From an uncultured Lentisphaerales bacterium (GTDB lineage Bacteria > Verrucomicrobiota > Lentisphaeria > JABSQK01 > UBA12247): a stretch of DNA of 64,000 bases. The translations under genes were made by a program, and so were the position numbers. The notes beneath the pieces were generated by a model that saw only the letters and a list, made by a program, of their open reading frames with translations, did no database searches and was not told where the DNA came from. Below, in pieces: positions 1 through 15,743 of this stretch. The stretch spans positions 1 to 64,000 of the forward strand of contig CALSSJ010000032.1 of the NCBI GenBank assembly GCA_943788985.1, in the 5' to 3' direction. Numbering within the stretch: position 1 is the stretch's first letter; each line of letters opens with the position of its first letter.

Positions 1-3000
1 GCCCATTTGCTTTGCGAAGTTCGCACCGACCATCGGCAGGTAGACGTCATTGATCAGCTTGTTCCGGACAAAGCCACTCATCACGCGCGGCTTAAACTCC
101 TCAAGCCGCATGCCTTCTGCTTGCTTCTCACCGAGTTCATGGCGCAAACGGGTGAAGGTCCGAAACATCGGCACGGTTTCGTTGACAAAGTGATCCAGCT
201 TGAGCAGAAAGCGGTCGAAGTGAATCTCGAGCACGCCGTTCTCGATCCGGCTATGCTGTCCAAGCAAGTCGTTCACGGTCTCACAGGTGCTGATCGCCTC
301 GGCCGCGGTCTCGATGCGACCACTAATCAAAATCAGCGCTGCGACTTCCCAGATCAGGCAGTTCTCCCCCGGTGTCTCGCGGATTTGCACGTAGGTTTTG
401 AGCCAATCCAGCACGAGGTACAGCTTGCTCTTGAGGTGGCCCTTGAGCTTGCCCAGGTCTTCCTCGAACGCGGCAAAAACTTTATGCTGGCGCAGGTGCT
501 CGACAAAGCGCGACTGCAGATCTGCAGCCAGCTGATTCTCGGTCAGCACCAAGTCATCATGGTCTTGAAGCTCATAGTAGAGAAATTCGGCCGCACCACG
601 CAGGATTGCGGAGTTCGCAGGCAATTTTAGATCATCGAAGAAAGCCGCCATCGGTTCACGAATTTCCTCGACGTACGAGCGATTGACTTCTAGTTCGCCG
701 AAGGCCTTGCGCAGGATACCAACACTATGGAGCTTGCTGCGCAGGCGATTCTTGAGAGTCTCGTCCTGACAGAAGGCCCAGAACAGCATGGCATGTGCGC
801 GTGCTTCTGAGTCGTAGCGCAGCAGGCCGCAGCGGCCATGCAAGCGGACCAGGCTGCCGAGGATCAGCGCGGCATCATGGTCATGAACACCCTTTTCGTA
901 GCCTTCGGTGTAGAGTTCGGATGAATAGTCCTGGACCACGTCCAACATCGGGTTTGCGGAGTCCGCAGCGGCCAGCTCGGTGAGCTGCATCAGCGAGAGA
1001 CCTTTCTCTGCGTGCAGCGCGTCCTGGAGGATGCAGTAGGCGAGGTACTCGCCGCGGTAGACGTGGCGATCTTCGCTCACCAGTTCCTGGGTCCACAGCG
1101 GCCGAGTCTCGAGGAATTCGGGGTCTGTGATCGGCTCGAAGTAGTCGGTGCCGGTGAGGTGGAAGCACATGTCGTTGTCGCGAAAGACAGTGGTGAGCGC
1201 GAGCTGCTGGGTGTTGACGCTGAAGCGATAGCCCCCGAGATTGATGATATTGTCATCGCCTTCGAATAGGTCGAGCCGGTCGCGCAGCTTGCGTCCAATC
1301 TCATCCTGCGAAGCCTTGAGCTGTCCGGCCAGGTCATCGGCCTTAACGGTGTCGCCCATTCCGGTAAGCTTGGCGATCAATTCACGCAGCTTGACCACCA
1401 TTAGGTCTGCAGCGTAGTAGGCATTAATCTCGTCAATGGTCTTGAAGGTCGAGGCGCGACTGCCCACGCCGCGCATGATCCGATTGGCGCTGGAGAGCAG
1501 GCTGTTGATGCGGCGCTGCTGCTCTTCCTCGAGCACCTGCTTGCGGTTGTTGAAGGCGTTGTACGCCTCCTCCCGCTTCTCGGCCAGCTTGTCGGCATAC
1601 TCATCATAGTCGGCGAAGCGGCCCTCGAGCTCTTCGACATTGATCATGATCTTGGTGAGCAGTTCATCGCAGCGATCCGGCGAATCGCAGAGCCCGATAA
1701 AGTTGGTTATGCTCTGGGTCAGTAGCTGATATTGCGCTGCGAACTCCGCAGCAGCTTCACCCTTGCCCAAGTTCTGGTGAAGCCCACGGGCGACGGCCTT
1801 GGTGCGGTTGATTTGGCCATAGACGCCAGTAATCGTGTCGACGATTGCGGTGGTTTTGGTGGTGTCGTCGATGTTGAGGTTATTCACCACATCGGTCAAC
1901 AGGTCCAAGCGCTCACTGAGGACGGTGAGGTCTTCCTCGATCGGTTTTAGGTCGGCCAGCTTTTCAACTTTCTCGATTAGGCCATCCATCTCGGACAGGC
2001 GCTCGAAGTACGGCTTGAACGCATCGTCGCGCAGCAAAAAGTCGACGCAATTCAGGCAGACCTGCTGATAGGCCTTTTCGAGTGATTCCTCCATGCTCTC
2101 GACCGCTTTCGGGTCGCTAAAGCGCAGATCGCGCAGCGAGATGCAGTGCCCTCTGGTGGCGCGCAATTGATTCAGCAGCTCGACGAACTCATCGACGCTG
2201 GTCTGGCTTTCCAGATGAGCGCGCTTGCACAGCGAGTCCACGTTCTTGACGTTCTCGCCGATCTGGCGTTCGGTATCCTTTCGAATTCGCTCAACTTTCT
2301 CGAACTCATCGATCGCGGCTACGCCGGTCTGGCGAATCTCGCCCAGCACTTCCTGAAGGTTGAACACCTCTTCGTGATTGAGCCAATGATAGGAATCCAG
2401 CGCACCAGTGGACTCACGGATCAAGTCTTCGAAGGTGACCAGGGCGGGGTCTGGACGACTAATCAGCCGGGAAATCGAGTAGCAGTCGGAGACACCACGC
2501 ACGAGATCGCGATTACCGATCTTATACAGAAACGAATTGGTGTCCTTGGCGATTTCGTGGGTATCTGAGTAGAACGGTGTCTGCCAGATCTGCATCGGGT
2601 GCATGCGCCGCGCTTCCTCATCCTGCGCGCTGAAAATGATCATGCTGCCTTCTTCGAAGATAGTAGACCCGTGGCAGAAAATCGGATTCTCGAGGGCTTT
2701 ACTAATGAGATTGTACTGGATGAGGATATATCGGCCAGTCTGCCGCTGGTAGAACTGGAAGGCAAAATCCTCGCCATTTGGGGAGCGGCGGCAGCCGGTG
2801 TACACCATGCCCGAAACGTCTTCGTCGAACCGTTTCATCTCGCCGTCCTGCAAGTAGCACCCGCGCGGAAAAATGATGCCGTGGTCTTCTGGAAGCAGAA
2901 TGCAGGCCTGGGCGAGGGTGTCTTCGCGCACCACCCGCCGGCGCTTGTAGTCGTAGATGTAGTAGCGCGGGGCTTCCTGATACGGCATAATGCGCAACAG

Positions 3001-3807
3001 CAACAGGTGCCCTACCTCGGCATACGAGATGACCGCATCATCCAGGGTCTGGTCACGGTTGTCGACCGGCTCCGAAAAGATGCCTTCGCCCGATGCAGTA
3101 TTATTCTCGACCTTGATCGTGAGATCGCCGCCGATGGTCTCGACGAAAACCCGATCCAGCACGCTGACATGCGGATGCTCGCCCGACACCTGATCATCAC
3201 GCGTACAGGGCTCCCATTCGAACTCGAGCTGATTGGGCGGTTCTAGATCCGTGTCGCCGCCGTTGTCCTCATAGACCAGCGTGTTTCCCTCGATCCGCCA
3301 GCGAAAGACCTTGAAGTCGTCTACCGTCTCGCCGGTTTGGAAGACCATATAGAGACGCCCGTTCTGCTCCCGAAACTGGAGGAACCTTGCATGCTTGTAG
3401 TATTTGTACAGCTCTTGGAAATCGCCCCGAAAGCTGATGTCATCGATGAAATTGGGGTCTCCGGTGCGTAGCTCGCCATTCTCGAACAGCTGCACGGAGA
3501 ATACGTCGGTGAGCGCGGTCTCGTTCTTGAGCCCGACAAACACGTTGTAGCCAAAGATGACTGTGTTGCCGACGGAGACGATATCTCGCGGCACACATTT
3601 ATTCTCGGTCTGGATGCGGTCATGGCCGATGATTGCCGATTCTTGCCCGCCGAACACGTCCTTGCGGGAGAGATTCAGCTTATCGATGCGCTCCAAAAGG
3701 CTCGTGTTGAGCGCCTTTAGGCGGCTATGAAGGACTCCAAACGCGCCGCCCTTCAGTGCGGGCGATGCTGCGGCATCCGCAGATTCGTCGGTGGTCGGGT
3801 CAGCCAT
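1..3807 (-). CDS. Large 'DNA repair ATPase' family protein (DUF3686-type), 3'-partial; the AAA domain is expected beyond the window edge
   Basis: ATG at 3807 reads MADPTTDESADAAASPALKGGAFGVLHSRL...RIQTENKCVPRDIV...IFGYNVFVGLK. The same frame at position 1 reads MRLEEFKPRVMSGFVRNKLINDVYLPMVGANFAKQMG, the motif that precedes the P-loop in this family. The ORF track lists no ORF in this frame, consistent with an open frame running off the edge. Confidence 0.85.
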   Translation of the reverse strand, partial: MADPTTDESADAAASPALKGGAFGVLHSRLKALNTSLLERIDKLNLSRKDVFGGQESAIIGHDRIQTENKCVPRDIVSVGNTVIFGYNVFVGLKNETALTDVFSVQLFENGELRTGDPNFIDDISFRGDFQELYKYYKHARFLQFREQNGRLYMVFQTGETVDDFKVFRWRIEGNTLVYEDNGGDTDLEPPNQLEFEWEPCTRDDQVSGEHPHVSVLDRVFVETIGGDLTIKVENNTASGEGIFSEPVDNRDQTLDDAVISYAEVGHLLLLRIMPYQEAPRYYIYDYKRRRVVREDTLAQACILLPEDHGIIFPRGCYLQDGEMKRFDEDVSGMVYTGCRRSPNGEDFAFQFYQRQTGRYILIQYNLISKALENPIFCHGSTIFEEGSMIIFSAQDEEARRMHPMQIWQTPFYSDTHEIAKDTNSFLYKIGNRDLVRGVSDCYSISRLISRPDPALVTFEDLIRESTGALDSYHWLNHEEVFNLQEVLGEIRQTGVAAIDEFEKVERIRKDTERQIGENVKNVDSLCKRAHLESQTSVDEFVELLNQLRATRGHCISLRDLRFSDPKAVESMEESLEKAYQQVCLNCVDFLLRDDAFKPYFERLSEMDGLIEKVEKLADLKPIEEDLTVLSERLDLLTDVVNNLNIDDTTKTTAIVDTITGVYGQINRTKAVARGLHQNLGKGEAAAEFAAQYQLLTQSITNFIGLCDSPDRCDELLTKIMINVEELEGRFADYDEYADKLAEKREEAYNAFNNRKQVLEEEQQRRINSLLSSANRIMRGVGSRASTFKTIDEINAYYAADLMVVKLRELIAKLTGMGDTVKADDLAGQLKASQDEIGRKLRDRLDLFEGDDNIINLGGYRFSVNTQQLALTTVFRDNDMCFHLTGTDYFEPITDPEFLETRPLWTQELVSEDRHVYRGEYLAYCILQDALHAEKGLSLMQLTELAAADSANPMLDVVQDYSSELYTEGYEKGVHDHDAALILGSLVRLHGRCGLLRYDSEARAHAMLFWAFCQDETLKNRLRSKLHSVGILRKAFGELEVNRSYVEEIREPMAAFFDDLKLPANSAILRGAAEFLYYELQDHDDLVLTENQLAADLQSRFVEHLRQHKVFAAFEEDLGKLKGHLKSKLYLVLDWLKTYVQIRETPGENCLIWEVAALILISGRIETAAEAISTCETVNDLLGQHSRIENGVLEIHFDRFLLKLDHFVNETVPMFRTFTRLRHELGEKQAEGMRLEEFKPRVMSGFVRNKLINDVYLPMVGANFAKQMG

Positions 3808-3915
3808 ACGGTGCAAGTCCAGCCGGGATGAGAGAGCGCAGAAGCCCGGCGCGACCGGGCGATACAAAATAGCGAGTGCTCTGAAGTGATGCAACCGTCT
3901 TCTTTCGGATGGGCG

Positions 3916-5236
3916 TCATTCTGCGGCGAAATCTTGGCCGTCGAGCTTGCGGATCTGCACGTGCACGCCCGGCGCCGGCGCGGTCATGCGGTTGATTACC
4001 ACCACATCGCCAGTCGCCAAACCGCTGACTAACAGGAGTTCGCCTTGATCCCGAACCACAGAGACGGCAACGCGGCGCAGGTCGCGGGTCTCTCCCGCAC
4101 CATCCAAGACGTACACGTGGGAGTCTTCGGTAACTGCGATGCGCGGTAGCCGGACGACGCCTTCCGCTATTTTTCCGGGAATGCGAACTTCGCAAAACAT
4201 GCCTTCCACCAACTCGGGGGCGTCGTCCTGCTCGAGCACGATGATCAGGCCAATCTGGCGATCGCGGGGGTCGAAGGAGGCGATGCGCTCGACGGCTCCG
4301 GACTGCCATTGGTCAGCTTGCGCGTCGACCCAGCGAATGCGGGCGCGGGTACTGACCGGCCGCGGTAAGGCACCGGGCCCATCTGAGTCGCTGAAGTGCA
4401 ACCAGCGCCGAGCATCGGCGAAGTCGAGTGCCACCGTGATCTCGCGCACGCGATCGTCCACCAACTCGGCGATCATGGCGGTGGGCGAGACCACATCTCC
4501 AGGCTCGACCTGCTCGCTGACCACGCGGGCTGAGAATGGAGCAAGCACCGTACAGCGGGAGATCTGCAGCCTGAAAGTTTCCGCCGCGACTTCGAACGTT
4601 GCCAGCTGTGCCTTGAGCACGTTGATCTGGCGCGGCAGCGCTGCCAGCGTTCCCTCGTGGCCGACGATGCGTTCCTGATCGGCAATGACCGCCTGCGTGG
4701 CACGCTCGACCGCGGCCCTGTGTTCCGACGTTGGCCGAAGTGAGGAGACTGTTCTGTCGCGCCAGCTCGCCTTCGCTCAGCGCCAGCCCGCGCTTACGAA
4801 CGGCCAGCAGCGCCTCGGTCGACTCGATCTCCCGCTGCAAGCGTGCGATCTCCGCAACCACCCGCATTTTCTCGGCCTCGGTCTGCTTGAGCTGGAGCCT
4901 GAAATCTTGCTCATCAATCGTGAGCAATAGGTCGCCCTTGTCGACGCGTCTTCCAGGCAGGAGATTGGGATGCACAGTGAGCACTTCGCCGCTGACCTGC
5001 GGCCGCAGCATGAGTCGGGTTCGGGCCTGAATGGTACCGAAGCCAGGCAGTTCGATTTTGGTATCGCCGGTGTGGGCGGTCATCGCATCGACGGGAATAG
5101 GCGGAACCATCACTGCTTGCTGTGCGGGGGCCTTCTTCTTAGCGGCCAGCCAACCGCTGACCGAAATCCCGCCAGCAAGAAATGCGCCGACCACGAACAG
5201 GCGCCAAACAATAATTAGCTGTGGTGCGACCTTCAT
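3916..5236 (-). CDS. RND efflux periplasmic adaptor (membrane fusion protein), split by a +1 frameshift at ~4716-4718
   Basis: N-terminal TM, PQVSGEV...VDKGDLL and coiled coil in ORF 4313..5236; APFSARV...PGDVV and beta-barrel in ORF 3916..4620. Removing one base of a G-run joins the frames as NVGTQAAVERATQAVIADQER. Confidence 0.85.
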
Positions 5237-6513
5237 TCGTACTCTGGCAGCATGGCCAGCTCCTCAATCACCGCCGCCATGTTCTTGGGCCGCTCCTCCC
5301 GAATCTTCGCCATGCAACGCCGGCAGACGAACGCTTCCCACTCATCGGGGAGCGAGGGGACCAGCCCCTTCAGCGCGGGTGGACGTTCTGTGAGATGCTT
5401 CTGGTATAGCTCGTAGGTGTCCAGCCCATGAAAGGGAGCGCGCCCGCAGATCAGGTGGTACAAGGTCGCCCCAAAGGCATAGATATCTGCAGCGGCCGTC
5501 AGCGGCGCATCGGTAAACTGCTCAGGAGGCATGTAGACCGGCGTCCCTAGGGCGATGTTCGACTGGGTCAGTTGGCTCTCGCCAAACCGGGCAACCCCGA
5601 AATCCCCCAGCTTGACCGAGCTATCGCGGCAGACGAAGATGTTTCGCGGTTTCACATCGCGGTGAATAATATTGTTCTTGTGCACGTATTCGAGTGCTTC
5701 GGCCACATCATTGGCCACGCGGCGCACTTGCTTGCATTTGGCCGGGCGACCGCTCACGATCTGTTCGAAAAGGTCCTGCCCCTGGAGAAATTCCATCACG
5801 TAATAGGGGCAGCCTTCGTGCCTGCCGTCGTCCAGAACGGGGATCAGGTTAGGGTGCTGAAGTCGCTGCATAACCTTGATTTCGCGCGTGAATCGCTGTT
5901 GCCCAGACCAATCATCGGTCATGTGTTTGGACAAAAGTTTTATAACGCACTCTGCGCCACTGGAGACGTGTTCGGCGCGATACACCAGCGTGCCGCCGCC
6001 CCAGCCGAGTGTTTCGGTAATGCAATAGCCACCGATACTGTCGCCGGGACTCGGGCGACTGCGGATGTGCGCCAAGGTAAGGGCTTCGTCTTCCTCGACC
6101 TCGCGCAGCCGCGGGCAGTACTTCATCAGCATGTCGATCTTGCTCGACAGCTCCTCCGGGTGATACTGCAGTTTGGTGAAGAAGTCATCGGCACCCGCTT
6201 CGATGCCGCGCACGTGGTTGGTGACGTCTTGCAGGCCGGTCAGCATGATCACGGGAAAGAGCGGCGAGAGCTCCTTCTTTATGGTCCGACAGACCTGGTA
6301 GCCGTCGATATCCGGCAGCAGCACGTCAAGAATTACGAGGTCGATCGCGGCGCAGTCGTCGGGGGACTCGCCAAGCCCAAGCATCGCCAGCGCCTTCTTG
6401 CCATAGGCAGACTCGACGATGTTTGTGTAGCCTGCGTCCTCTAGCTGTGCACGCAGCAAAACGCGGTGCGGCTGACGATCATCGACGATCAGAATGCAGG
6501 GCGACTGGTCCAT
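5233..6513 (-). CDS. Receiver domain fused to a Hanks-type Ser/Thr protein kinase
   Basis: REC motifs ILIVDD, ILDVLLP, MLTG, FTK; kinase motifs GWGGGT, VIK, HRDVKPRN, DFG, GTPVYMPPEQ. Start moved to ATG 6513. Confidence 0.9.
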   Translation of the reverse strand: MDQSPCILIVDDRQPHRVLLRAQLEDAGYTNIVESAYGKKALAMLGLGESPDDCAAIDLVILDVLLPDIDGYQVCRTIKKELSPLFPVIMLTGLQDVTNHVRGIEAGADDFFTKLQYHPEELSSKIDMLMKYCPRLREVEEDEALTLAHIRSRPSPGDSIGGYCITETLGWGGGTLVYRAEHVSSGAECVIKLLSKHMTDDWSGQQRFTREIKVMQRLQHPNLIPVLDDGRHEGCPYYVMEFLQGQDLFEQIVSGRPAKCKQVRRVANDVAEALEYVHKNNIIHRDVKPRNIFVCRDSSVKLGDFGVARFGESQLTQSNIALGTPVYMPPEQFTDAPLTAAADIYAFGATLYHLICGRAPFHGLDTYELYQKHLTERPPALKGLVPSLPDEWEAFVCRRCMAKIREERPKNMAAVIEELAMLPEYE

Positions 6514-6576
6514 AAGCGAGGTCAATGCACGCGTGTGGGGTTGCAGGAACGCGTACAGTGGCCACCTTTCGGGGCT

Positions 6577-7470
6577 ATGCAACTTCCTCCTACCGTTACT
6601 CCCCCGACGCATGTCGCGATCGTGGCACCGGCATCCGGCTTGGATGACGCAGCCTTACAGGCTCGCGTGTCCTATCTTGAAGCGCTCGGATGTAGCTGTG
6701 ATGTCGGGCAGGTGACTCAGCCCGGTCCAGCGCTAGAGTCTGATGTAGCCCGAGCTCAAGAGCTCGCGGCCGCGATGCGCAGCGATGCCTCGGTCATCCT
6801 TTGTGCGCGCGGCGGCTACGGCACCACGCGCCTGCTCGATGCGCTGGATTTTGCGGAGTTCGCAAACCGCCCAAAGTGGGTCGTAGGCTTCAGTGATATC
6901 ACGGCGCTGCAGCTGGCAATTCTCAAGCATACCGGGATTGGCTCAGCAAGTGGGTTTCTGCTCTATCCGAGTTTGGATGAGTGCGGGATCGCTCGGCCAC
7001 GGGCTGGTGAATCACTGTGGCAGACGCTCGGCGGAGATTTTCAGCCGGTTCGTTCGCTGAAGTGCCTGCGTCCCGGGCGAGCGCAGGGCCCGCTGGTTGG
7101 CGGCTGCCTGAGCATGATAACGGCCTTGGTGGGCACCCCGCATCTTCCGGACCTGTCTGGCACCCTGCTTTTTCTCGAGGATGTGGGGGAGCGACCGTAT
7201 CGAATCGACCGGATGTTGCAACAGTTGTGGTCTGCTGGGGTCCTTCAGGACGTGGCCGGACTGATAGCCGGGCACTTCGCAGGCTGCCACGCACGCGGCG
7301 CGCTCGATGCTACGGTACCGGACGTGCTTGCGCACTGGGCCAGCCGTGTGAATTGCCCAGCTGTTACAGGCCTTCCGTACGGCCATGACATCGACTCTCT
7401 GGTACTGCCAATTGGCGTACCCGCAACACTTGATGCCGACGCCGGAACCTTGGACCTCTACCCCGTTTGA
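6577..7470 (+). CDS. LD-carboxypeptidase (peptidase S66, LdcA-like)
   Basis: IVAPAS, CARGGYG, VGFSDIT (catalytic Ser), LFLEDVGE, PYGH (catalytic His). Confidence 0.9.
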   Translation: MQLPPTVTPPTHVAIVAPASGLDDAALQARVSYLEALGCSCDVGQVTQPGPALESDVARAQELAAAMRSDASVILCARGGYGTTRLLDALDFAEFANRPKWVVGFSDITALQLAILKHTGIGSASGFLLYPSLDECGIARPRAGESLWQTLGGDFQPVRSLKCLRPGRAQGPLVGGCLSMITALVGTPHLPDLSGTLLFLEDVGERPYRIDRMLQQLWSAGVLQDVAGLIAGHFAGCHARGALDATVPDVLAHWASRVNCPAVTGLPYGHDIDSLVLPIGVPATLDADAGTLDLYPV

Positions 7471-7474
7471 ATTC

Positions 7475-8197
7475 ATGAAGTACTTTCTTGTTTTTACGAT
7501 GTTCGCAACCCTTGTGTCTGGCCAGAATGCGGAGACCACTGAGGCCTTTTGCAACAGCCTGCGCCAGCCGCCGGTTACCCCCGCATGGGCCATCCTCGAG
7601 GGGAAGGCGGAGTTCCGCCCGAAAGGCGAGAAGACACAGCGCGAGGCGATCTCGCTACGCATTCACATGACCCCAGCCATGCTGCGCGCCCAGCTGCTGT
7701 TTGGCGATGATGAACGCTACCTGGTGCAGCAGGTGTTTGCCGATGGCCTGGAAGGCGGCAGCGTGATCACTGAGGAGAAGCCGGGCGAGGGCGCGCTTTC
7801 GCTGGCAGCAGTGGGGCTGCGCGCGAATGATCTGATGCTGTCCTTTCTTTATTGGGACCTGGTCGGGGAACTGCCGTCTGAAAAAATCGGCGGTACCGCC
7901 TGCCGGGTGCTGCAACTCAAACACGAAAACGAGGTGGTGCACGTGTGGGGCAGCGTGGAACATCGCTTTCCCCTTCAAGTGCACTGGTACGATGCGGGGC
8001 GGAAAGACCCGAAACGTACGCTGCGGTTCACGGATTTTGAGGCGCTGGACGAGAAGCGCTTTTGGGTGGTCAAGAGTATGACAATTCGGGGCCTGAACTG
8101 GAAGACGCGGGTGACCTTTGGCGAGAGCCGAGGCATGGCTATCACGCCGTCTGATCCGATTCCGGCCAGCTTATTTGCAGGGGGATACCATGACTGA
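7475..8197 (+). CDS. Secreted protein, outer-membrane lipoprotein-sorting / LolA-like
   Basis: Signal-peptide-like N-terminus MKYFLVFTMFATLVSG; beta-rich C-half (EKIGGTACRVLQL, VHVW, PLQVHWYD) resembling LolA-like proteins. Confidence 0.55.
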   Translation: MKYFLVFTMFATLVSGQNAETTEAFCNSLRQPPVTPAWAILEGKAEFRPKGEKTQREAISLRIHMTPAMLRAQLLFGDDERYLVQQVFADGLEGGSVITEEKPGEGALSLAAVGLRANDLMLSFLYWDLVGELPSEKIGGTACRVLQLKHENEVVHVWGSVEHRFPLQVHWYDAGRKDPKRTLRFTDFEALDEKRFWVVKSMTIRGLNWKTRVTFGESRGMAITPSDPIPASLFAGGYHD

Positions 8198-9338
8198 TTT
8201 ATCACAGCCAGTGTTGTTGTTTGGCATTGGCACAAATGCCGGGCGGATCCTGACGGAGCTGTCTTCACGATCCCTCCCGGACTACGTGCGCACCGTGCAG
8301 GCAGATACGGAGGAAAGCGCGCTGCAGGATGTGGTAGCTGACCATACGCTACAACTAGGCCGCGAGTGGACCGACGGCCTGGGCTGCGGTGGAGATGACG
8401 GCCAGGGCTACCGCGCTGGGCAGTCAAGCATCAAGGCGATCGAGGAAGCGGTCGCGAAAGCGAAGTTGGTGATTGTGGTAACGTCACTCGGTCGCGGCAC
8501 CGGATCCGGTGCGGTGATGAGCGTGGCACAGGTCATCCGGGAAAAGCGGCTGCCAGCTCTCTTTCTCTGCGTGCTGCCTGCATCGATAGATGGCAATCGC
8601 CCGGTACTGATGGCAGAGCGCGCCCTACAGAAGCTGCGGGCGGAAAATAATGCCGTGATCGTGTTGCCCGGCAACAATGTCCTCTCTGCTGCTAAGCTTG
8701 ATGAGGATTTTGCCAAGGCGTACGCGCAACTAAATGGCTTTGTCGCAGACAGCGTAGAGGGTCTGGTCCGCATGCTGAACAGCAACGCAACCAAACCGAT
8801 CGATTTCCCCGTGCTGCGAAACTACCTGATGCAACGCAAGGCTGAATGCGGAATCGGGACGGCCACGGTTTCGGAACACGTAGGCCTCGACCGGATTTTG
8901 GATCAGGCACTGGCCTGCCCGCTTTTTGGCACAGACAATAACGTGACGAAGGTGGACGCCGTAATCGTTTCTCTTCAGGGCGATGTGAGCTTGCGAAGTG
9001 CGCAAACCGTCATCGATTCATTGCACCGGCGATTTCCCCCGTCCGTACAGACTGACGTCGGTACGCAGTACGATGGCTCAGTTCCAGGCCAGGCCCGACT
9101 TACCCTGCTGGCGATTCGCTATCAACAACTGCCTAAGAAGCGCACGCGCAAGCCTAGAAAACGATCATCGATACCGATTTTTGATCCGACAGCCACGCGT
9201 CAAATGCGGCTGGCGATCGGCGTAGACGGCGTCGGCATTTTCTCCCAGGTGCAAGCGACCGTGCATCACGAACAAAACCTCGATGTCCCCACCTTCCAAC
9301 GCCAAGGGATCGAGCTGGACCTAGCCGAAACTGAGTAA
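8190..9338 (+). CDS. ftsZ: Divergent FtsZ-family protein
   Basis: Collinear FtsZ motifs: FGIG, DTEESAL, GLGCGG, SLGRGTGSG (tubulin signature variant), IDF, and C-terminal core NLDVPTFQRQG. Start overlaps the upstream stop. Confidence 0.8.
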   Translation: MTDLSQPVLLFGIGTNAGRILTELSSRSLPDYVRTVQADTEESALQDVVADHTLQLGREWTDGLGCGGDDGQGYRAGQSSIKAIEEAVAKAKLVIVVTSLGRGTGSGAVMSVAQVIREKRLPALFLCVLPASIDGNRPVLMAERALQKLRAENNAVIVLPGNNVLSAAKLDEDFAKAYAQLNGFVADSVEGLVRMLNSNATKPIDFPVLRNYLMQRKAECGIGTATVSEHVGLDRILDQALACPLFGTDNNVTKVDAVIVSLQGDVSLRSAQTVIDSLHRRFPPSVQTDVGTQYDGSVPGQARLTLLAIRYQQLPKKRTRKPRKRSSIPIFDPTATRQMRLAIGVDGVGIFSQVQATVHHEQNLDVPTFQRQGIELDLAETE

Positions 9339-9342
9339 TTGC

Positions 9343-10782
9343 ATGATTGAACTGACAGACCTTCTTATTGCGGCGCGCAACGCGCTGTTCATCGTTTTCT
9401 TTCTCGGCTTTAGCATTTTCATCCATGAGCTGGGGCATTTCTGGGTGGCCTACAAGCGTGGGATGCATATTGAGAAGTTTTCGGTGGGATTTGGGAAAGC
9501 AATTTATCGCTGGAAGTGGCTTGGGGTAGACTTTCAGATTGGCTGGATCCCGCTGGGTGGGTTCGTGGCCTTGCCCCAGTTGGACCCCGGCGATGAACCG
9601 CAGGCGCGCGACGGTACGGTGCTGCCAGTCGTGAAGCCGATTGACCGGATTCTGGTCGCGATAGCCGGACCGGTCTGCAACGTGATTTTTGGCCTTTTCT
9701 TGGCCACGATCGTCTGGAAGGTGGGCATCTTTGGCTTGCCACCGGCCCCTTCCGTGACTGTGGAGGAAGTCCCCCAGTACTTCGAGACCAAGAAGGGAGA
9801 TGAGATCATCCGTGGCGAGACGCCAGAATGGCTGGCAGGGCTTCGCCGCGGGCATGTGATTACAAACGTAAACGGCACCGACTTGAAGGGCGGCTGGCCG
9901 CAGGTGGTAGACTTGATTGTCTACGATCGTGATGGGCGTGTAGCGCTGAAGGGCACGCAGGATGATGGCGAGGCGTTTGCGCTGGAATACCAATTGGTAG
10001 GAAACCCGATCTTCGACGGAGTCGGTGTACCCTTTTTCCATCCGGTCTTTCCCATCTTTGCCAAGTTTGTGCAGCCAGGCCCCGCTCGCGAGGCAGGCGT
10101 GAAAACGAAGGACCAGCTGATCGCGGTAAACGGCAAGCCGATTACGTCGGGCCGGATGCTGCAGAATGAGATTCAGCAGGCCAAGAATTCAGCCGTTACC
10201 CTGACGGTCACCAGGGGCAAGAAGGACATCACGTTGACGATGGTTCCGGCGATACACGAAGAGGCGCAGCGCTACGTGATCGGGGTGGTGATGGAAAGCG
10301 GATTTAAGCACCATCCGCCGCCATGGAGCAAGCTGACGAAAGTGGCCGAGGACACCTACCGCACGGTCGGTGCCGTATCGTCATCGAAGAACCCGATCGG
10401 CGTGAAGCACCTCAGCAGCATTCTTGGGATGATCAACGCAATCTGGACCGTGCTCAATCACAGCAGCTGGGTGGATGCGCTGGATATCGTGGTGTTCATT
10501 AACTTTGCCCTCGCGATTTTTAATCTGCTGCCGATTCCGGTGCTGGACGGCGGACATATTACGTTGGCTCTGATTGAGCTGATCGCGCGTCGCCGAGTGC
10601 CCGCACGCTTGACGATCGCTGTCTACAACGCCTGTGCCATAGTGCTGATCTCGTTGATGATGTACATCTTCTTCCACGATGCCCGCCGCATGGTTCAGCC
10701 ACCGCATCGACAATCTACGACGGTAAGCGAACCGCCTGCGCCAGCTAATCCCCCTCCGCAGCCTGCTACAGAAACACAATAA
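9343..10782 (+). CDS. rseP: RIP metalloprotease RseP (M50 with PDZ domains)
   Basis: HELGH, FSVGFG, IPLGGFV, AGPVCN, PDZ segments, NLLPIPVLDGG. Confidence 0.95.
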   Translation: MIELTDLLIAARNALFIVFFLGFSIFIHELGHFWVAYKRGMHIEKFSVGFGKAIYRWKWLGVDFQIGWIPLGGFVALPQLDPGDEPQARDGTVLPVVKPIDRILVAIAGPVCNVIFGLFLATIVWKVGIFGLPPAPSVTVEEVPQYFETKKGDEIIRGETPEWLAGLRRGHVITNVNGTDLKGGWPQVVDLIVYDRDGRVALKGTQDDGEAFALEYQLVGNPIFDGVGVPFFHPVFPIFAKFVQPGPAREAGVKTKDQLIAVNGKPITSGRMLQNEIQQAKNSAVTLTVTRGKKDITLTMVPAIHEEAQRYVIGVVMESGFKHHPPPWSKLTKVAEDTYRTVGAVSSSKNPIGVKHLSSILGMINAIWTVLNHSSWVDALDIVVFINFALAIFNLLPIPVLDGGHITLALIELIARRRVPARLTIAVYNACAIVLISLMMYIFFHDARRMVQPPHRQSTTVSEPPAPANPPPQPATETQ

Positions 10783-10845
10783 GAGTAATTAAATTGTGGC
10801 GGAACATGACGTCGTTCTGATACCCGGGAAAGGGGGCAAATGCCT

Positions 10846-10864
10846 CCGGTGGTTTCACCACCGG
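10846..10864. terminator. Perfect hairpin between convergent rseP and moxR (terminator or REP-like palindrome)
   Basis: ccggtggt-ttc-accaccgg, 8-bp stem; no clear U-tract directly after it. Confidence 0.4.
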
Positions 10865-10903
10865 CTACGTTCGATTTTCCCTTTGGAAAACGGCCCTTAG
10901 GTC

Positions 10904-11899
10904 CTACACGACTTCAGCGGTCGCTGCGATCTGCGCCTCCAGCAAGGTCTCGGCAGTGATGCCTTCCGCCTGGCCGTCGTAATTCAGTAGCAGGCGATGC
11001 CGCAGGACTTCGACTGCGAAGTAGCGGACGTCTTCGAAGGCGACGTGCACGCGGCCTTGGGACAGGGCGCGTACTCGCCCGGCACGCAGTAAGGCTTGGC
11101 CAGCCCGGGGACTCGCTCCTGCTCTCACGAACAGGCGAATCTGCTCGCCAGCGAACTCGGTATCGGGATGCGTCCCGAGAACGAGGCGGGTCGCGTAGTC
11201 GCGAATTGGCTCGGCAATGACCACTTTCTGCAGTATCTCACGCAGGGCGAGGATCTGGTCACCGTCCATGATCTTTGTGACCTCAGGCTGCTCGCGCAGT
11301 ACCGTGCGCTTGAGCACTTCATTCAGGTCGTCGCGGCTCAGAAACGGGACGCAGACTTTGAACATAAACCGGTCAAGCTGTGCTTCGGGTAACGGATAAG
11401 TGCCTTCTTGTTCGAGTGGATTCTGTGTCGCCAGAACAAAGAATGGTGGTCGGAGCGGGTGTGACTCGCCATCAACGGTGACGGAGTGTTCCTGCATCGT
11501 TTCAAGCAGCGCAGATTGGGTTTTTGGCGTAGCCCGGTTGATTTCGTCCGCAAGGAGAAGCTGGGTGAAAACCGGACCGCGGCGAAACTCGAAGGAGTAA
11601 TTTCCGTGGTCGCTCTGGCTCATGACTTTGGTGCCAATGATGTCCGCTGGCATCAGATCCGGGGTAAATTGAATCCGCTTGAACTCCAGATCCATGACTG
11701 CGGCAATTGTCTTAACCAGCTCGGTTTTTCCCAGCCCGGGGACACCCTCAAGCAAAATATTTCCGCCAGCAACCAAGGCGGTCACAGTGGCCTCAATGAC
11801 CCGTTCCTGCCCAGCGATGACTTTCTGGATCTCTCCGTTGATCGCGGCGATCTCTGTGCGAAAACGCTCGGCTTCCTGCTGCAGTGGTTCGTCACTCAT
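10904..11899 (-). CDS. MoxR-family AAA+ ATPase
   Basis: LEGVPGLGKT, RIQFTPDLMPADIIG, LLADEINRATPKTQSALLE, ATQNPLEQEGTYPLPEAQLDRF. Confidence 0.95.
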   Translation of the reverse strand: MSDEPLQQEAERFRTEIAAINGEIQKVIAGQERVIEATVTALVAGGNILLEGVPGLGKTELVKTIAAVMDLEFKRIQFTPDLMPADIIGTKVMSQSDHGNYSFEFRRGPVFTQLLLADEINRATPKTQSALLETMQEHSVTVDGESHPLRPPFFVLATQNPLEQEGTYPLPEAQLDRFMFKVCVPFLSRDDLNEVLKRTVLREQPEVTKIMDGDQILALREILQKVVIAEPIRDYATRLVLGTHPDTEFAGEQIRLFVRAGASPRAGQALLRAGRVRALSQGRVHVAFEDVRYFAVEVLRHRLLLNYDGQAEGITAETLLEAQIAATAEVV

Positions 11900-14840
11900 T
11901 CTCTTTCTCCCATCGTTTCTTTTTCTTGAGTAGGGCTCCGGCAGTCGACCTTTGCTCGGATTCTGCTGGTTCTGTCGGCTCGGCTTGCGGGCTCGGCCTC
12001 CTGGCAGTGGCTTCCGATACCGGTCGGGGCGAACGACTCGCGCGCCCCAATGTGGCCGGACGTGTCTCTGGCCGAAGATTACGCTTACGCGCCAGGAGGG
12101 AGCCGATGGTCCCGTCGGCTTGTGTCTTGCCCCGGCGTTTCGGCAACCACTGACGGAAGCCGATCTGCACGCGTCGGATGGCGACATCAGCGAGCAACAG
12201 ACCGCTTAGCGCAATCAGAAACCAGTCGATGATCAGCTGCGTACTACGCCTGACTTCGCGAGTCGCAGGGAAGATGTCGGCAGCGGATTCATCGCCTAGC
12301 AGGATGCGGCCGCCGGTACGGTCGGCAATGCGCTGCAGGTGTGGGAGATCGCCGCGAAACCGCAGGTACTCGGCGGAGTAAGGAATGATCAGGCTAGCAG
12401 TAGCCATCTCGGCGCGCTCGCCCGCGCTGCCAGTCACGAGCAGATGATAGTGGCCTACACCGGATAGTGGATACTCTGCCTCGTAGCGTCCCGGGGCGGT
12501 CTGGCGCAGGTCTACATTGACGTCGGCGCCGTTGGGACCGAGTACAGATGCCGTCAACTCAAGAAAGCCGCCGTCTGGATGGGAATCCTGAACCACCAAC
12601 TTACCCCTGGGCCCGGAAGCCCAGGACTGGACCGTGAGATGAGAGTCCTTCTCGACACGGCTGATATCTTCGAACAGCTGCTTCACGAATTGGTCATGGT
12701 TAGCCGAGGCAACCCAGTCGCGGCCCCAGCGTGCCGTGAGGTCGGAGGTGAATGCGGCCGTGCGCCCGAGACCGTGCTGCCAGACAGCCAATACCGGATC
12801 CAGCGCTTCTTTGTCTGGCCCCCGCAAGATGGTCACCGCGCGATCCTTCGGCGTGGTTAGTGTGTACCCGTGGAGCGGCGAGACCTCGGTGATCCCCTTC
12901 ATGATCGCTGAATACGCGTTCATGGTCGGGTAGAAGGTCTTGTTCTGGATCAGATTGCGACGCAGTGTCTTGGCTTCCTTGATGAAGATGGAGGGGAGCT
13001 GGTTCGGATCCTGCGGGAAGTAATAGCGCCCACCGGTCGCCGCAGCGATGGCCTGCATAATGCTCACTTCCACATTCCCGTGGGGAAAGATAGACACCGT
13101 GCTGACGCTGATTTTCTCGGTCACGAACTGATCCAGCACGCTGGGGGCCGGTGGCTGGGGATCGCCATCGGAAATCACGATCATATGCCGCGCGGCGGCA
13201 TCCGAGTCGCTCAGCGCCTTGAGCCCCATCTCCATGGTCGGCGAGAAAGATGGCATATCGCCGATCTGCGCAGCGCTAATCTTACGGGCCATCTCGTCGT
13301 ATTCGGAGATCGGCGTGAGTTCGCAGACAAACTTGACGCCGCCCTGATAGCTGTAGGCCAGCACGCATGCCTCGTCGCGCTCCCCAAGCACCCGGATTGC
13401 GGCCTTGGTAATGTTCTTGCCCCAGGTGTTGCCATTGGGGAATTCGCAGGTGTGCAGGACGATGGCAAGTGCCGCTTTGGGCATGACCCGGCGCATGGTG
13501 ATGTCCATTGTCACCGGCAAGGCAGTTTCGACTGGCGTCTGCCGGTAGCCACCAGGTCCGAAGCTGTTCTCGCCGCCGATCATCAGCAAGCCCTGGCCTT
13601 GCCGAAAGACTGCCTGCTGAATCGCCTGCAACTGCGGATAATCGAATGAGTCTGCAGCGACGTTACAGAGTACGATGCAATCGTACGGCATCAGCTCCAA
13701 AGCACTGTATGGCATCTCAAACGATGTCATGGGCTGCACCTCTGCCTCGGCTGCGGCCAACGCCTGGGCCAGATAGCTGTAGTCTGCGTCATCTGCGGCG
13801 AGCGGGTCGGTGACCAGGAGAATCCGACGCTGCCCCTTGAGATAGATGTAGTTAATTCCGATGTTATTCTCGCGCCGGGTATCCCGTCCGGGAGCGGGAA
13901 TGATCTCCGCGCGATAGGTGTAATAACCGGGGGAGCGCAGGTAGATCGGCAGGGTAAACCGGTTTTTGCCAGCGGAATAGGTGACAGCCTCGCGCGCGAT
14001 TTCCTCGTCGTTCTCGAAGAGTACGAGTTGGCCGCCGCCGGCAGTCAGGCTGCTCAGCAGTACTGACGCCTGGTAGGTCTCGCCTCGTTTGACGTTGACC
14101 GGCAGCCCCAGCCGCTCGATCCAGACCTCCTCCGTGATGTCATACTGCACGGGCAGCACGTCTACGGGCAAATCACGCGCTTTGCATTCGTCTAAAACAC
14201 CGGTCGTGTCTCCACTGGGAGAGACGCCATCGCTGATCAGCACGATGCGTCCCGGGGTGTCGAGGGGGACCAACGCCGCAGAGAGAGCCAGCGCCTTGCC
14301 GATGTTGGTGTCGTCGCGGGGCACCTGTACATTGATTGCCTCGAATGGAAACGACTCGGTAGGCGGTAATTCGACGGCGGCGTCGCCACCAAGAATGACC
14401 AGTCCGGCTCGGTCTCCGTCCGGACGGTCGTTCGCTGTGGCCAAGATGTATTTCAAGCCCTCGGTTGTGGCAATCTTCCCCACCGAGTCTGACACGTCGA
14501 GGACATACACAACTGACAGGTCATCGTTCTCTCGTACCGAGCGCGGCTCGGCAAGTACGGTGATCAGCACTGCAATCAGGGCATAGCGTGCGAGTTGTGC
14601 ACTCACGTTGCGCAGGCCAGAAAGACCGTGAAAGCCAGTCACATGAAGCCACCAGAACCAGATCAGACTGGCGGACAGAGCAAACGCAGCCGGTCGGCCA
14701 AACAGAACAGCGCGGGTATACATGAGAGCGCCAATCGCGAGTACGAACACCGCAACAAACACGATGAGCGGCGCTGCATCTCGCCCGGTAATCGGCCGAC
14801 GCGGTTCAGGAACGATCAGTCTTAGCCATCGATAGGCCAT
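11892..14840 (-). CDS. Membrane-anchored protein with two vWA domains and a central GATase1-like domain
   Basis: N-terminal TMs; MIDAS DVSDS...T...ISDG; GLLMIGGENSFGPGGYRQTPVE (GATase1-like); second vWA with ISDGD and ATGGRYY; C-terminal TM. Confidence 0.85.
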   Translation of the reverse strand: MAYRWLRLIVPEPRRPITGRDAAPLIVFVAVFVLAIGALMYTRAVLFGRPAAFALSASLIWFWWLHVTGFHGLSGLRNVSAQLARYALIAVLITVLAEPRSVRENDDLSVVYVLDVSDSVGKIATTEGLKYILATANDRPDGDRAGLVILGGDAAVELPPTESFPFEAINVQVPRDDTNIGKALALSAALVPLDTPGRIVLISDGVSPSGDTTGVLDECKARDLPVDVLPVQYDITEEVWIERLGLPVNVKRGETYQASVLLSSLTAGGGQLVLFENDEEIAREAVTYSAGKNRFTLPIYLRSPGYYTYRAEIIPAPGRDTRRENNIGINYIYLKGQRRILLVTDPLAADDADYSYLAQALAAAEAEVQPMTSFEMPYSALELMPYDCIVLCNVAADSFDYPQLQAIQQAVFRQGQGLLMIGGENSFGPGGYRQTPVETALPVTMDITMRRVMPKAALAIVLHTCEFPNGNTWGKNITKAAIRVLGERDEACVLAYSYQGGVKFVCELTPISEYDEMARKISAAQIGDMPSFSPTMEMGLKALSDSDAAARHMIVISDGDPQPPAPSVLDQFVTEKISVSTVSIFPHGNVEVSIMQAIAAATGGRYYFPQDPNQLPSIFIKEAKTLRRNLIQNKTFYPTMNAYSAIMKGITEVSPLHGYTLTTPKDRAVTILRGPDKEALDPVLAVWQHGLGRTAAFTSDLTARWGRDWVASANHDQFVKQLFEDISRVEKDSHLTVQSWASGPRGKLVVQDSHPDGGFLELTASVLGPNGADVNVDLRQTAPGRYEAEYPLSGVGHYHLLVTGSAGERAEMATASLIIPYSAEYLRFRGDLPHLQRIADRTGGRILLGDESAADIFPATREVRRSTQLIIDWFLIALSGLLLADVAIRRVQIGFRQWLPKRRGKTQADGTIGSLLARKRNLRPETRPATLGRASRSPRPVSEATARRPSPQAEPTEPAESEQRSTAGALLKKKKRWEKENE

Positions 14841-15733
14841 GTGACCACCACAATTCTACGATTTCCTGTGTCGGCGATCAGCACGCGATTTCCGTCGCTT
14901 GCCAGCCCCCATGGCGTCGACAACTGCCCGTGATTACGCCCTGGGGTCCCCCATGCTCCGTGGAAGGAGCCGTCAAAACCCCAGCGGGAAATGCGCCCGT
15001 CGCCCCATTCGGCGATCAGCATTCCCTCTTCAGCGAGCACTAGGTCATAGGGGAACTGCATCTTGCCTTTGCCCACGCTGAGCAGATGCTCACCGTCCTC
15101 GCTGAAGACCTGAAGCTGATGGTTCGCCGCGTCGGATACGTACAGTTTTCCGTCTTGCCACTCGATGCCGGACGGGCGTTGGAACTCGCCGGGCTCGGTG
15201 CCGAAGGCGCCAAACTGCGAGCGATACTCGCCATCCGCAGAGAACCGCTGCACGCGATCATTGGACCCGTACTCGCAGACAAACAAGTCGCCGTTCGGGT
15301 GCTCGCAGACGGCTACCGGGTAGATGAATTGCCCGTCAGCCGTGCCCTTTGAACCGAAAATGCGGACGATCTCGCCAGTATTCGTAAAGATCACCATGCG
15401 ATGGTAATGCGTATCTGGTACCACGATGTTTCCGTTAGCCAGAACAGCCAGATTCTCCGGCCTGCCCACGATGCTCTCAGGCATACGCCACTGACGCAGC
15501 ACGGCCCCGTCTCGGTCCAGAACGGTGATGCGGCCCGCGGTATCTAGGACATAGGCCTCGCTGCTGTTCGCGGACATAGCGATGCCGCGGGGGGCGGGCT
15601 GACTGGCTCCCTCTGTCGGCAACCGCCAAGACGTCACACTCGCAGCCTGAAGCACAACCGTGTCCCTCTGGGTACAGGAAACCAGTTGGCAAGCTGCCAG
15701 GGCGACAAGCACGGTGCCAGTCAGGAGCCTCAT
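14822..15733 (-). CDS. NHL-repeat 6-bladed beta-propeller, probable lipoprotein
   Basis: Repeats GxxGxxxGQFxxP (GTADGQFIYP, GTEPGEFQRP, GRNHGQLSTP), ADTGNRRI; hydrophobic N-terminus with LAAC. Confidence 0.85.
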   Translation of the reverse strand: MRLLTGTVLVALAACQLVSCTQRDTVVLQAASVTSWRLPTEGASQPAPRGIAMSANSSEAYVLDTAGRITVLDRDGAVLRQWRMPESIVGRPENLAVLANGNIVVPDTHYHRMVIFTNTGEIVRIFGSKGTADGQFIYPVAVCEHPNGDLFVCEYGSNDRVQRFSADGEYRSQFGAFGTEPGEFQRPSGIEWQDGKLYVSDAANHQLQVFSEDGEHLLSVGKGKMQFPYDLVLAEEGMLIAEWGDGRISRWGFDGSFHGAWGTPGRNHGQLSTPWGLASDGNRVLIADTGNRRIVVVTWPIDG

Positions 15734-15743
15734 GCGTGAACGG

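Follow-up and report, generated by a model that had tools for sequence, protein, structure and literature searches.

The stretch analysed here (hereafter the window) comprises 64,000 nucleotides from an uncultured Lentisphaerales bacterium (assembly GCA_943788985.1, contig CALSSJ010000032.1, positions 1 to 64,000 of the forward strand) and carries at 8190..9338 an ftsZ gene, whose product departs from canonical FtsZ in the T1, T5, T6, H7 and T7 motifs and retains the C-terminal partner-binding peptide. The genome assembly to which the window belongs (G000; 4.58 Mb, 48 contigs, window on contig C32) is estimated to be 83.6% complete. The gene is a working gene and not a relic; its product is predicted to act as an FtsA-tethered division scaffold with weak or no GTPase activity, a functional assignment to which we give about an even chance. 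P0002, the closest relative of the window FtsZ (60-61% identical, protein sequence only), is referred to throughout. The gene and its parts were located as follows.

8190..9338, + strand: ftsZ orthologue, 382 amino acids (aa) plus stop, ATG start, based on open reading frame (ORF) call, Pfam, NCBIfam, PDB sequences, AlphaFold2 (AF2) model, Foldseek and tree
8223..8249, + strand: T1 loop or G-box GIGTNAGRI (canonical GVGGGGxNA), residues 12-20, from the alignment with PDB sequences and the 106-row alignment
8487..8513, + strand: T4 tubulin signature LGRGTGSGA, residues 100-108, six of seven signature positions kept, from the same alignments
8574..8603, + strand: T5 loop LPASIDGNRP (canonical PFxFEGxxR), residues 129-138, from the 106-row alignment
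8664..8684, + strand: T6 loop LPGNNVL (canonical PND), residues 159-165, from the 106-row alignment
8718..8744, + strand: start of helix H7, AYAQLNGFV (canonical AFxxA(N/D)DVL), residues 177-185, from the 106-row alignment
8793..8816, + strand: T7 loop KPIDFPVL (canonical INxDFADV), residues 202-209, Asn replaced by Pro, first Asp (D205) kept, second Asp replaced by Val
9123..9224, + strand: basic linker of low model confidence, residues 312-345, predicted local distance difference test (pLDDT) 58-60 over residues 321-350, 50% identity to P0002 with 3 gaps
9225..9320, + strand: conserved C-terminal module, residues 346-377, GIF..(A/P)T followed by the partner-binding peptide, 84% identity to P0002, pLDDT 86-87 over residues 351-370
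9276-9308, + strand: partner-binding peptide NLDVPTFQRQG, residues 363-373, its Pro and Arg present in 61/61 other Lentisphaeria

An alternative TTG start at 8118 is possible and would lengthen the ftsZ frame; P0002 begins where the ATG lies. Six further ORFs overlap ftsZ (five antisense, one in another + frame), and none of them matched a Pfam family. Rfam at gathering thresholds gave no match over 6000-11000, and a promoter and terminator scan of 6200-11200 gave no pattern exceeding shuffles.

The identity of the protein was examined by profile, sequence and structure comparison. The Tubulin/FtsZ GTPase domain (PF00091) was matched at 73.7 bits against a cut-off of 33, and the FtsZ_C family (PF12327) only faintly at 15.1 bits against a cut-off of 27; by fold the C-terminal domain is present, as the AF2 model aligned over 304-316 columns with full FtsZ cores at a template-modelling score (TMt) of 0.78-0.86. 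The NCBIfam ftsZ profile TIGR00065 was matched over positions 22-326 of 353 at 116.4 bits, which does not reach the equivalog cut-off of 295.2. In a phmmer search of PDB sequences 54 distinct sequences were matched at E ≤ 1, the top 51 of which were FtsZ or FtsZ/tubulin chains, and the E-values obtained (best 1.7e-22) rule out chance similarity. The AF2 model, calculated from a 71-row alignment, had a mean pLDDT of 90.3 and a predicted template-modelling score (pTM) of 0.81, with low confidence solely in the linker. Foldseek against the PDB returned FtsZ structures across the top 50, with TMt 0.78-0.86 (0.60 in a single domain-swapped entry), a root-mean-square deviation of about 3 Å and 19-22% identity. 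According to the model, the window FtsZ thus has both FtsZ domains; structure modelling had been proposed as a check in the earlier note, which had read the gene as ftsZ from the letters alone. The C-terminal module was modelled at pLDDT 86-87 despite the disordered linker preceding it, and the GIF..(A/P)T motif in front of the partner peptide is common to FtsZ of Lentisphaeria and of other Verrucomicrobiota.

Motif states were read from an alignment of 106 FtsZ sequences, made up of 17 proteins from database searches, 75 of 80 scan loci and 14 of 18 relatives' genes; five partial loci (L026, L046, L053, L071, L104) and four duplicate relatives' genes were left out. According to record title, kinship and clade, the comparison sequences were grouped into 61 other Lentisphaeria, 27 other sequences labelled Verrucomicrobiota, and 16 from outside the Planctomycetota-Verrucomicrobiota-Chlamydiota (PVC) superphylum, and counts are given below in this order. 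The Lentisphaeria group takes in seven rows whose titles read Verrucomicrobia or uncultured, namely L028, L035, L038, L059 and L063 by their clade in the tree, and L041 and L061, which lie outside the tree, by their motifs.

In the alignment with PDB sequences, GIGTNA was paired with GVGGGG, GRGTGSG with GGGTGTG, PASIDGNRP with PFNFEGRRR, and PIDFPV with NLDFAD. The four motif changes (T1, T4, T5, T7) and the retained tail NLDVPTFQRQG reported in the earlier note were therefore all seen again, and the catalytic residues of T7 are not all conserved (PIDFPV against NLDFAD). For T7 the claim, NVDFAD to PIDFPV with loss of the Asn and the catalytic Asp, was refined: the Asn and the second Asp are lost, the first Asp (D205) is kept, and the loop does not conform to NxDxxD, of which PIDFPV retains the first Asp alone. 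The changes in T6 (PND to PGN) and H7 (Phe to Tyr, no Asp) are additional to those described before. The Pro and Arg of the tail are kept along with the first T7 Asp.

Much of this pattern is shared by the class. The T1 Asn was kept in 3/61, 17/27 and 15/16 sequences, the T2 Asn in 0/61, 19/27 and 15/16, the H7 Asp in 0/61, 2/27 and 12/16, the T7 Asn in 1/61, 20/27 and 15/16, and the second T7 Asp in 19/61, 7/27 and 14/16, so that the last is missing in 42/61 other Lentisphaeria. The T7 defect is a class trait, and partly a phylum trait; loss at T7 does not single out the window gene, because the second Asp is kept in just 19/61 Lentisphaeria and 7/27 Verrucomicrobiota. A non-canonical T7 loop is widespread in the phylum, the second Asp being missing in 20/27 other Verrucomicrobiota FtsZ, for example in INVDFATL of Opitutales and LNVDFAHV of Verrucomicrobiales metagenome-assembled genomes (MAGs).

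Other changes are specific to the window FtsZ and P0002, namely those in T1, T5, T6 and H7. The T5 Glu was invariant in all 104 comparison sequences (61/61, 27/27, 16/16) and is Asp in the window FtsZ and P0002 only; the T5 Phe, kept in 56/61 other Lentisphaeria, is Ala in the window and Ala or Thr in the pair. The Asn and the Asp of T6, each kept in 57/61 other Lentisphaeria, are replaced by Gly-Asn in both proteins, and the H7 Phe, kept in 58/61, is Tyr in the window. The GGG of T1 has become TNA in the window and SNA in P0002; among the other Lentisphaeria, 40/61 retain the first Gly and 52/61 the third. The change from GGG to GRG in T4 is found in the window but not in P0002; 50/61 other Lentisphaeria have Gly at the position of the Arg and 5 have Arg, and GRGTGSG still agrees with the signature GGGTG(T/S)G at 6/7 positions. 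Of 68 sites conserved to at least 75% among the 61 other Lentisphaeria, the window FtsZ keeps 45 and changes 23; 13 of the changed sites lie in the T1-T6 and H7 segments, and 11 carry the same residue in P0002. The degenerate GTPase motifs of the earlier note are thus real, while the T7 loss that it stressed needs qualification, being class-wide and partly PVC-wide.

For the phylogeny, 61 of the 106 rows, thinned by hand, were subjected to a quick IQ-TREE analysis under LG+C20+F+G4, with the Shimodaira-Hasegawa-like approximate likelihood ratio test (SH-aLRT) as sole support measure. Lentisphaeria FtsZ formed one clade (SH-aLRT 100), whose stem measured 1.19 changes per site. The window FtsZ and P0002 were paired (SH-aLRT 100); no internal branch of the tree was longer than the stem of this pair, at 1.83 changes per site, and its two tips measured 0.35 and 0.41. 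The pair was nested in a subclade with relatives of the same order (SH-aLRT 84). The window FtsZ accordingly branches with the FtsZ of its relatives and is the sole copy detected in a genome that is 83.6% complete; the PVC affiliation suggested earlier, for which a PVC tree had been proposed as a check, is borne out as that of an orthologue nested within the class Lentisphaeria. Identity to up to 40 relatives was 21-33% for FtsZ, 22-35% for FtsA and 43-67% for MreB (57-67% for full-length MreB matches within the order). Setting aside a 115-residue fragment of the window protein, an exhaustive phmmer search of 1.84 billion cluster representatives left a gap from P0002 (61%) down to 35% identity, and a separate homologue search of the protein database agreed with this. 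The long stem of the pair therefore lacks intermediate forms from which an order of motif loss could be read.

The sequence is real and native to the genome. An independent metagenome assembly (L136) was 99.92% identical to window positions 2189-15335 over 13,146 bases (9 mismatches, 1 indel), with both differences inside the gene synonymous, and because it encodes an identical FtsZ protein the motif changes are not assembly errors. The GC content of ftsZ (57.8%) agrees with that of the window (57.9%). Marine and estuarine metagenomes contain the stretch in 20 public runs (11 studies). In four metatranscriptome runs (2 studies) assembled contigs covered ftsZ at at least 99% identity (X17, 8327-8647 and 8722-9366; X18, 8549-9294; X19, 8146-8793; X20, 8189-8400 and 8773-9192), which lends weak support to transcription of the gene.

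Between the window FtsZ and P0002, identity was 60% in the N-domain, 56% in the C-domain, 17/34 (50%) in the linker and 27/32 (84%) in the tail module, with gaps confined to the linker; the eight pocket and T7 motifs were 51/69 (74%) identical, compared with 222/382 (58%) overall. Six population variants, taken from L136 and the RNA-library contigs, comprised 4 synonymous and 2 non-synonymous changes (Q78R, A200T), which at 851.7 non-synonymous and 294.3 synonymous sites corresponds to a ratio of non-synonymous to synonymous polymorphism (pN/pS) of 0.17 (one-sided binomial p 0.041). The frame is open in two assemblies, conservation relative to P0002 depends on the region, and variants fall 4:2, a pattern not expected of a pseudogene. 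Together these observations point to a burst of change followed by purifying selection rather than neutral decay; the sample is small and all lines agree. The neutral decay that the earlier note had held out as a refutation is thus not borne out (pN/pS 0.17, tail 84%, motifs 74% against 58%).

These data bear directly on the idea that the gene is a relic nearing loss, without division function, in an organism that, like Planctomycetota and Chlamydiota, already divides independently of FtsZ. The position on the longest internal branch, the separation from ftsA (adjacent in 29/40 relatives), the more reduced FtsZ forms of the class and an FtsW-like gene in four frame pieces (both below) could all be taken in this sense, as could an unreferenced reviewer's remark of 2008 that the Lentisphaera ftsZ is non-functional (PMC2474590, in the part of the source available). 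Nevertheless, the 382-codon frame is intact in two assemblies, pN/pS is 0.17, the gene occurs in RNA libraries, identity to P0002 is 60% with indels in the linker only and 84% in the tail, and priA is split too, so that the broken ftsW may be an assembly artefact. A relic is therefore regarded as very improbable.

The genes adjoining ftsZ were annotated by Pfam, for which 48 ORFs were picked from a pool of 105 called ORFs and two window ORFs added by hand.

6466..7470, + strand: LD-carboxypeptidase (Peptidase_S66), upstream context, by Pfam
7385..8197, + strand: orphan ORF, likely start near 7475, hydrophobic N-terminus, stop overlapping the ftsZ start by 8 bases
9343..10782, + strand: RseP-like site-2 protease (Peptidase_M50 and PDZ), 5 bases 3' of ftsZ, by Pfam

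The orphan ORF, which sits where relatives carry ftsA, is a possible operon mate of ftsZ; it matched no Pfam or NCBIfam family, not even at E ≤ 1. Loci of 23 relatives, inspected to 1.5 kb from ftsZ, contained no homologue of the LdcA, orphan ORF or RseP neighbours. In the 5/5 relatives examined by Pfam ftsA lies directly upstream of ftsZ, and by coordinates the two genes were adjacent in 29 of 40 relatives and unlinked in 8 (all 8 genomes of family f9), with the order unsettled in 3 (G007, G008, G017), where they lie on different contigs near contig ends. In the window genome this order is absent: the orphan ORF stands upstream of ftsZ, and ftsA is on contig C43 (G000:C43:34471-35697, 409 aa; TIGR01174 158.6 bits, cut-off 175.85; PF14450 70 bits), followed by genes for a YfhO-like protein and a tail-specific protease. 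FtsA was found in 41/41 genomes of the relatives set, own genome included. Elsewhere in the genome mraZ-rsmH-ftsL-ftsI and MreB were located on C22, PBP2 on C5, and RodA and MraY on C44. The search for a second ftsZ, ftsA and a division and cell wall (dcw) cluster that had been proposed for this genome thus returned an unlinked ftsA, with no dcw cluster around ftsZ and no second FtsZ by TIGR00065 and PF00091 in the assembly, which is 83.6% complete. Among the relatives there was one FtsZ locus per genome wherever the window protein query matched (35/40).

That the gene might be a paralogue with another job, the true FtsZ lying in the unassembled 16% of the genome or division relying on a second tubulin-like protein, was weighed on this basis. 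The incomplete assembly (83.6%), the position of the gene apart from ftsA among envelope-related genes (LD-carboxypeptidase, RseP) and a second, well-conserved tubulin-superfamily gene on C10 speak in its favour; on the other hand, the tree places the window FtsZ among orthologues, an FtsA-type tail is retained, 35/40 relatives have one FtsZ locus per genome, and the exhaustive phmmer search of 1.84 billion representatives disclosed no closer family. We consider a paralogue quite improbable.

Several further features of the genome and window were recorded. An FtsW-like gene of the shape, elongation, division and sporulation (SEDS) family (G000:C23:67536-69710; L116:6212-7708 and downstream) consists of four frame pieces with one in-frame TGA and is fused at its start to the recA frame; two overlapping ORFs make up the split priA, and the MraY ORF has a 266-aa N-terminal extension (G000:C44, L119:3495-5682). 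At window position 4716 there is a 1-base indel relative to L136. Since priA is also split and the window and L136 differ by this indel, the split FtsW-like frames, like those of priA, are read as possible assembly indels and not as proof of decay. On the - strand, 10904-18601 encodes a MoxR AAA+ ATPase, a large VWA protein, an NHL-repeat (beta-propeller) protein, a bpX4-domain protein and a TPR protein, by Pfam names a MoxR-vWA-beta-propeller ternary system. Two proteins fusing response-regulator receiver and Ser/Thr protein kinase domains are encoded at window 5233-6612 (- strand) and L117:11908-13131.

With regard to function, the phosphates of the nucleotide are held in FtsZ mainly by backbone amides of T1 and T4, and ribose and base by the T5 Glu, the T6 Asn and the H7 Asp and Phe; for hydrolysis, the next subunit of the filament has to supply its T7 acids, and FtsA is bound through the C-terminal peptide. 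When the second T7 Asp is mutated (E. coli D212, B. subtilis D213), FtsZ is reported to assemble still, with little GTP hydrolysis and slowed treadmilling. Against this background, the class as a whole no longer has the T7 Asn or several residues that contact base and phosphate, most of the class also lacks the second T7 Asp, and on top of these losses the window lineage has rebuilt the remaining nucleotide pocket (T1, T5, T6, H7). Hydrolysis is therefore expected to be weak; specifically, catalysis should be poor because of the second T7 Asp to Val and T7 Asn to Pro changes, the T5 Glu to Asp and T6 Asn to Gly changes, the absent H7 Asp, and the replacement of three T1 Gly residues by Thr, Asn and Ala. 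Polymer-stimulated GTP hydrolysis, and hence fast treadmilling, would accordingly be weak or absent. The protein is predicted to fold, to be capable of polymerisation, to bind nucleotide differently or weakly and to hydrolyse it poorly, while the conserved C-terminal module most likely still docks on FtsA at the membrane, so that the window FtsZ probably remains an early scaffold of the divisome. By analogy with the non-exchangeable site of tubulin, the rebuilt pocket may still bind nucleotide as a structural cofactor, because it is itself conserved.

The contrary possibility is an ordinary fast-evolving FtsZ that is enzymatically competent, with its substitutions compensated, GTP turned over at a useful rate and division classically driven by FtsZ. 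The fold is intact, the T4 signature is present at 6/7 positions and the first T7 Asp remains; relative to P0002, conservation is higher in the pocket motifs than in the rest (51/69 against 222/382), as if the pocket were used; FtsA, FtsL, FtsI and MreB are present; and the whole class lies under the NCBIfam cut-off yet retains the gene (178/184 genomes with a match, 0 above). It has to contend, however, with the absence of the second T7 Asp and the T7 Asn, replacement of a T5 Glu found in 104/104 other sequences, the missing T6 Asn-Asp and H7 Asp, and three replaced T1 Gly, and model FtsZs lose almost all GTPase activity when just the second T7 Asp is mutated. A competent enzyme is thus possible, though somewhat unlikely.

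The scaffold with weak or no GTPase, to which we incline, is weighed down by a number of points. The phosphates are bound largely by T1 and T4 backbone amides, and with T4 hardly altered (GRGTGSG) the protein may have retained nucleotide binding and a degree of hydrolysis. The first T7 Asp is still in place, and a conserved but changed pocket fits an active, altered enzyme equally well. In Verrucomicrobium spinosum, ftsZ is reported to be essential (PMC12283558, in the part of the source available); as 20/27 Verrucomicrobiota lack the second T7 Asp, its loss is compatible with a functional, perhaps active, division protein. The evidence for selection derives from one relative (protein only) and six variants. 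At the locus, ftsA is unlinked and the neighbour is an orphan, and 83.6% completeness leaves room for a second ftsZ. The RNA-library contigs of X17 and X18 also cover the neighbours of ftsZ, and DNA carry-over is possible.

To place the gene among its relatives, 184 Lentisphaeria genomes (183 at at least 90% completeness and the window's own) and 14 control genomes were surveyed with TIGR00065, and genomes that had yielded little at first were searched once more using A2, a profile of the clade. Of the Lentisphaeria genomes, 178/184 were matched at E ≤ 0.001 and 0/184 reached the cut-off (best 228 bits), compared with 13/14 controls; the window genome, at 116.6 bits, falls in the lower part of the class range and is not the lowest. 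In genus g12 (2.1-2.2 Mb, 95% complete) ORFs of 258-270 aa join the N-domain straight to the tail, with LGGKVCS in place of T4 and the entire C-terminal domain including the T7 loop missing; the genes still adjoin ftsA (L126, L127). In genus g18 (5.3-6 Mb, 2-80 contigs; L128-L130) the ORFs are about 350 aa and recognisable at profile positions 128-396 only, with the T2-T4 region unrecognisable, a G-box GLGERAGD and a weakened tail KLKVPTYKRLG; ftsZ lies 73-150 kb from ftsA on the same contig in two genomes, and on another contig in the third. Five of the six genomes without a TIGR00065 match were re-searched (all except G115), and all carry reduced FtsZ remnants. In family f6 (L217, L218, L220-L222) the ORFs measure 247-346 aa and score 25-57 bits in the N-domain and 28-44 bits in the tail, each a mini-FtsZ made of a degenerate GTPase N-domain and a conserved tail, the C-terminal domain with T7 missing. 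The ORF of G062 matches the C-terminal end only (profile 296-396), and G051 has only a fragment at a contig end. Complete loss of FtsZ was seen in none of the genomes searched with the clade profile. The tail is the last part of FtsZ to go in the class, and the reduced forms of other Lentisphaeria fit an erosion continuum. The suggestion that the gene marks a stage of FtsZ loss in a PVC lineage accordingly stands with regard to this continuum, and is to be corrected in that purifying selection, not passive decay, is indicated and no total loss was found. Within the subclade of the window FtsZ, one MAG carries an FtsZ more worn than the window's (L035:635-1789; T1 SVGTGAGEI, T3 largely deleted, T4 LGHRTGSEC) with the tail intact; the same MAG carries the second tubulin-like protein described below (L138).

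This second protein of the tubulin/FtsZ superfamily, here named TubL, is encoded in the window genome at G000:C10:73297-74400 (L005:1438-2541; 368 aa). It has an intact G-box GIGGAGSK, the signature GGGTGNG, the motif DGxxDxEDF and a conserved C-terminal LKR(I/L)GK(L/I). PF00091 was matched at 29.1-29.6 bits (cut-off 33), no Pfam family scored above its cut-off, and PDB sequences gave no match at E ≤ 10. Its AF2 model (pLDDT 83.6, pTM 0.81) was closest to TubZ, FtsZ and CetZ at template-modelling scores of 0.6-0.74. TubL was found in 25/41 genomes of the relatives set (own included) at 45-59% identity and is far better conserved than FtsZ. Matches in species-representative genomes amounted to 100 stretches, of which the best 80 are mostly from Lentisphaeria and Kiritimatiellales; the stretches listed include Oligosphaera ethanolica and Lentisphaera marina, and identity across the two groups was 43-59% (L121-L125, L131-L135, L137-L216). 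All lineages looked at with the most reduced FtsZ have TubL, namely the window's own family f1, f6, genus g18 of f9, and the MAG of L035 and L138. The pattern is broken by G003 (f4), whose FtsZ is weak and in which TubL was not found; TubL also occurs in many genomes whose FtsZ is of the ordinary class type. That TubL presence tracks FtsZ erosion is a lead only, with few independent lineages.

Going beyond the single gene, Lentisphaeria FtsZ could be undergoing repeated, independent conversion from a cytomotive filament powered by GTP to a small hydrolysis-free adaptor whose FtsA-binding tail is the essential part, the dynamic role perhaps having passed to TubL; we regard this as unlikely at present. 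The window FtsZ would then represent a full-length stage with a rebuilt pocket, and the proteins of family f6 the end stage. If true, the class would show, in living organisms, the route by which Planctomycetota and Chlamydiota lost their dependence on FtsZ for division.

Division in the Lentisphaerae is said to have been described as 'possibly also' FtsZ-based in the abstract of a 2008 study by Pilhofer et al. in J Bacteriol. In PVC surveys, as far as their available parts go, L. araneosa or Lentisphaerota are recorded as having FtsZ together with conserved dcw genes (PMC5147048, PMC12283558). The Lentisphaera ftsZ homologue is called non-functional in the above reviewer's remark of 2008, which carries no reference, and because of this remark the idea of FtsZ degradation may not be new (PMC2474590, in the part available). 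In the literature covered, from which subscription journals were largely outside, no account of per-residue erosion, truncated forms or TubL was found. The window FtsZ is thus an extreme full-length member of a class-wide, already suspected FtsZ degradation and not a unique oddity, and the surrounding pattern of catalytic erosion, tail retention, domain loss in one family and TubL is a more interesting lead than the single gene. How PVC bacteria came to divide without FtsZ is an open question, and the class provides a graded natural series: losses begin with the residues of catalysis and nucleotide contact, extend in one family to the C-terminal domain, and spare the tail throughout. The question becomes testable through cultured relatives (Oligosphaera ethanolica and Lentisphaera marina are named in the records) and small, easily assayed proteins. 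A natural hydrolysis-free FtsZ scaffold, if it is one, would test whether treadmilling is required to organise septal wall synthesis.

Compared with canonical FtsZ (TIGR00065; PF00091 and PF12327), the window protein is alike in its two-domain fold, near-intact T4, disordered linker, C-terminal peptide, single copy and the presence of FtsA in the genome, and differs in its score (116 against 295 bits), in the replaced T1, T5, T6, H7 and T7 and in the lack of ftsA adjacency and of a dcw cluster. With other Lentisphaeria FtsZ (Lentisphaera, Victivallis, Oligosphaera) it shares the clade, the lost T1 Asn, T2 Asn, H7 Asp and T7 Asn, the T3 sequence GCGGD and the extended tail GIF..PT..(N/D)LD(I/V)PT(F/Y)(Q/L)R; it is set apart by 21-33% identity and by further losses in T1, T5, T6 and H7 common to P0002 only. 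In being unlinked from ftsA it resembles family f9 (8/8 genomes), unlike most relatives. The same residue is missing from engineered FtsZ with a mutated second T7 Asp (E. coli D212, B. subtilis D213), and slow or absent hydrolysis would be expected in both cases, whereas the change in the window is natural, fixed, accompanied by a rebuilt pocket and located in the only FtsZ detected. A looser analogy is offered by the non-catalytic T7 of beta-tubulin, next to which the GTP of alpha-tubulin stays unhydrolysed: there, too, the T7 acid is replaced and the nucleotide is structural, as it may be in the window FtsZ, for which, unlike tubulin, no heterodimer partner is evident.

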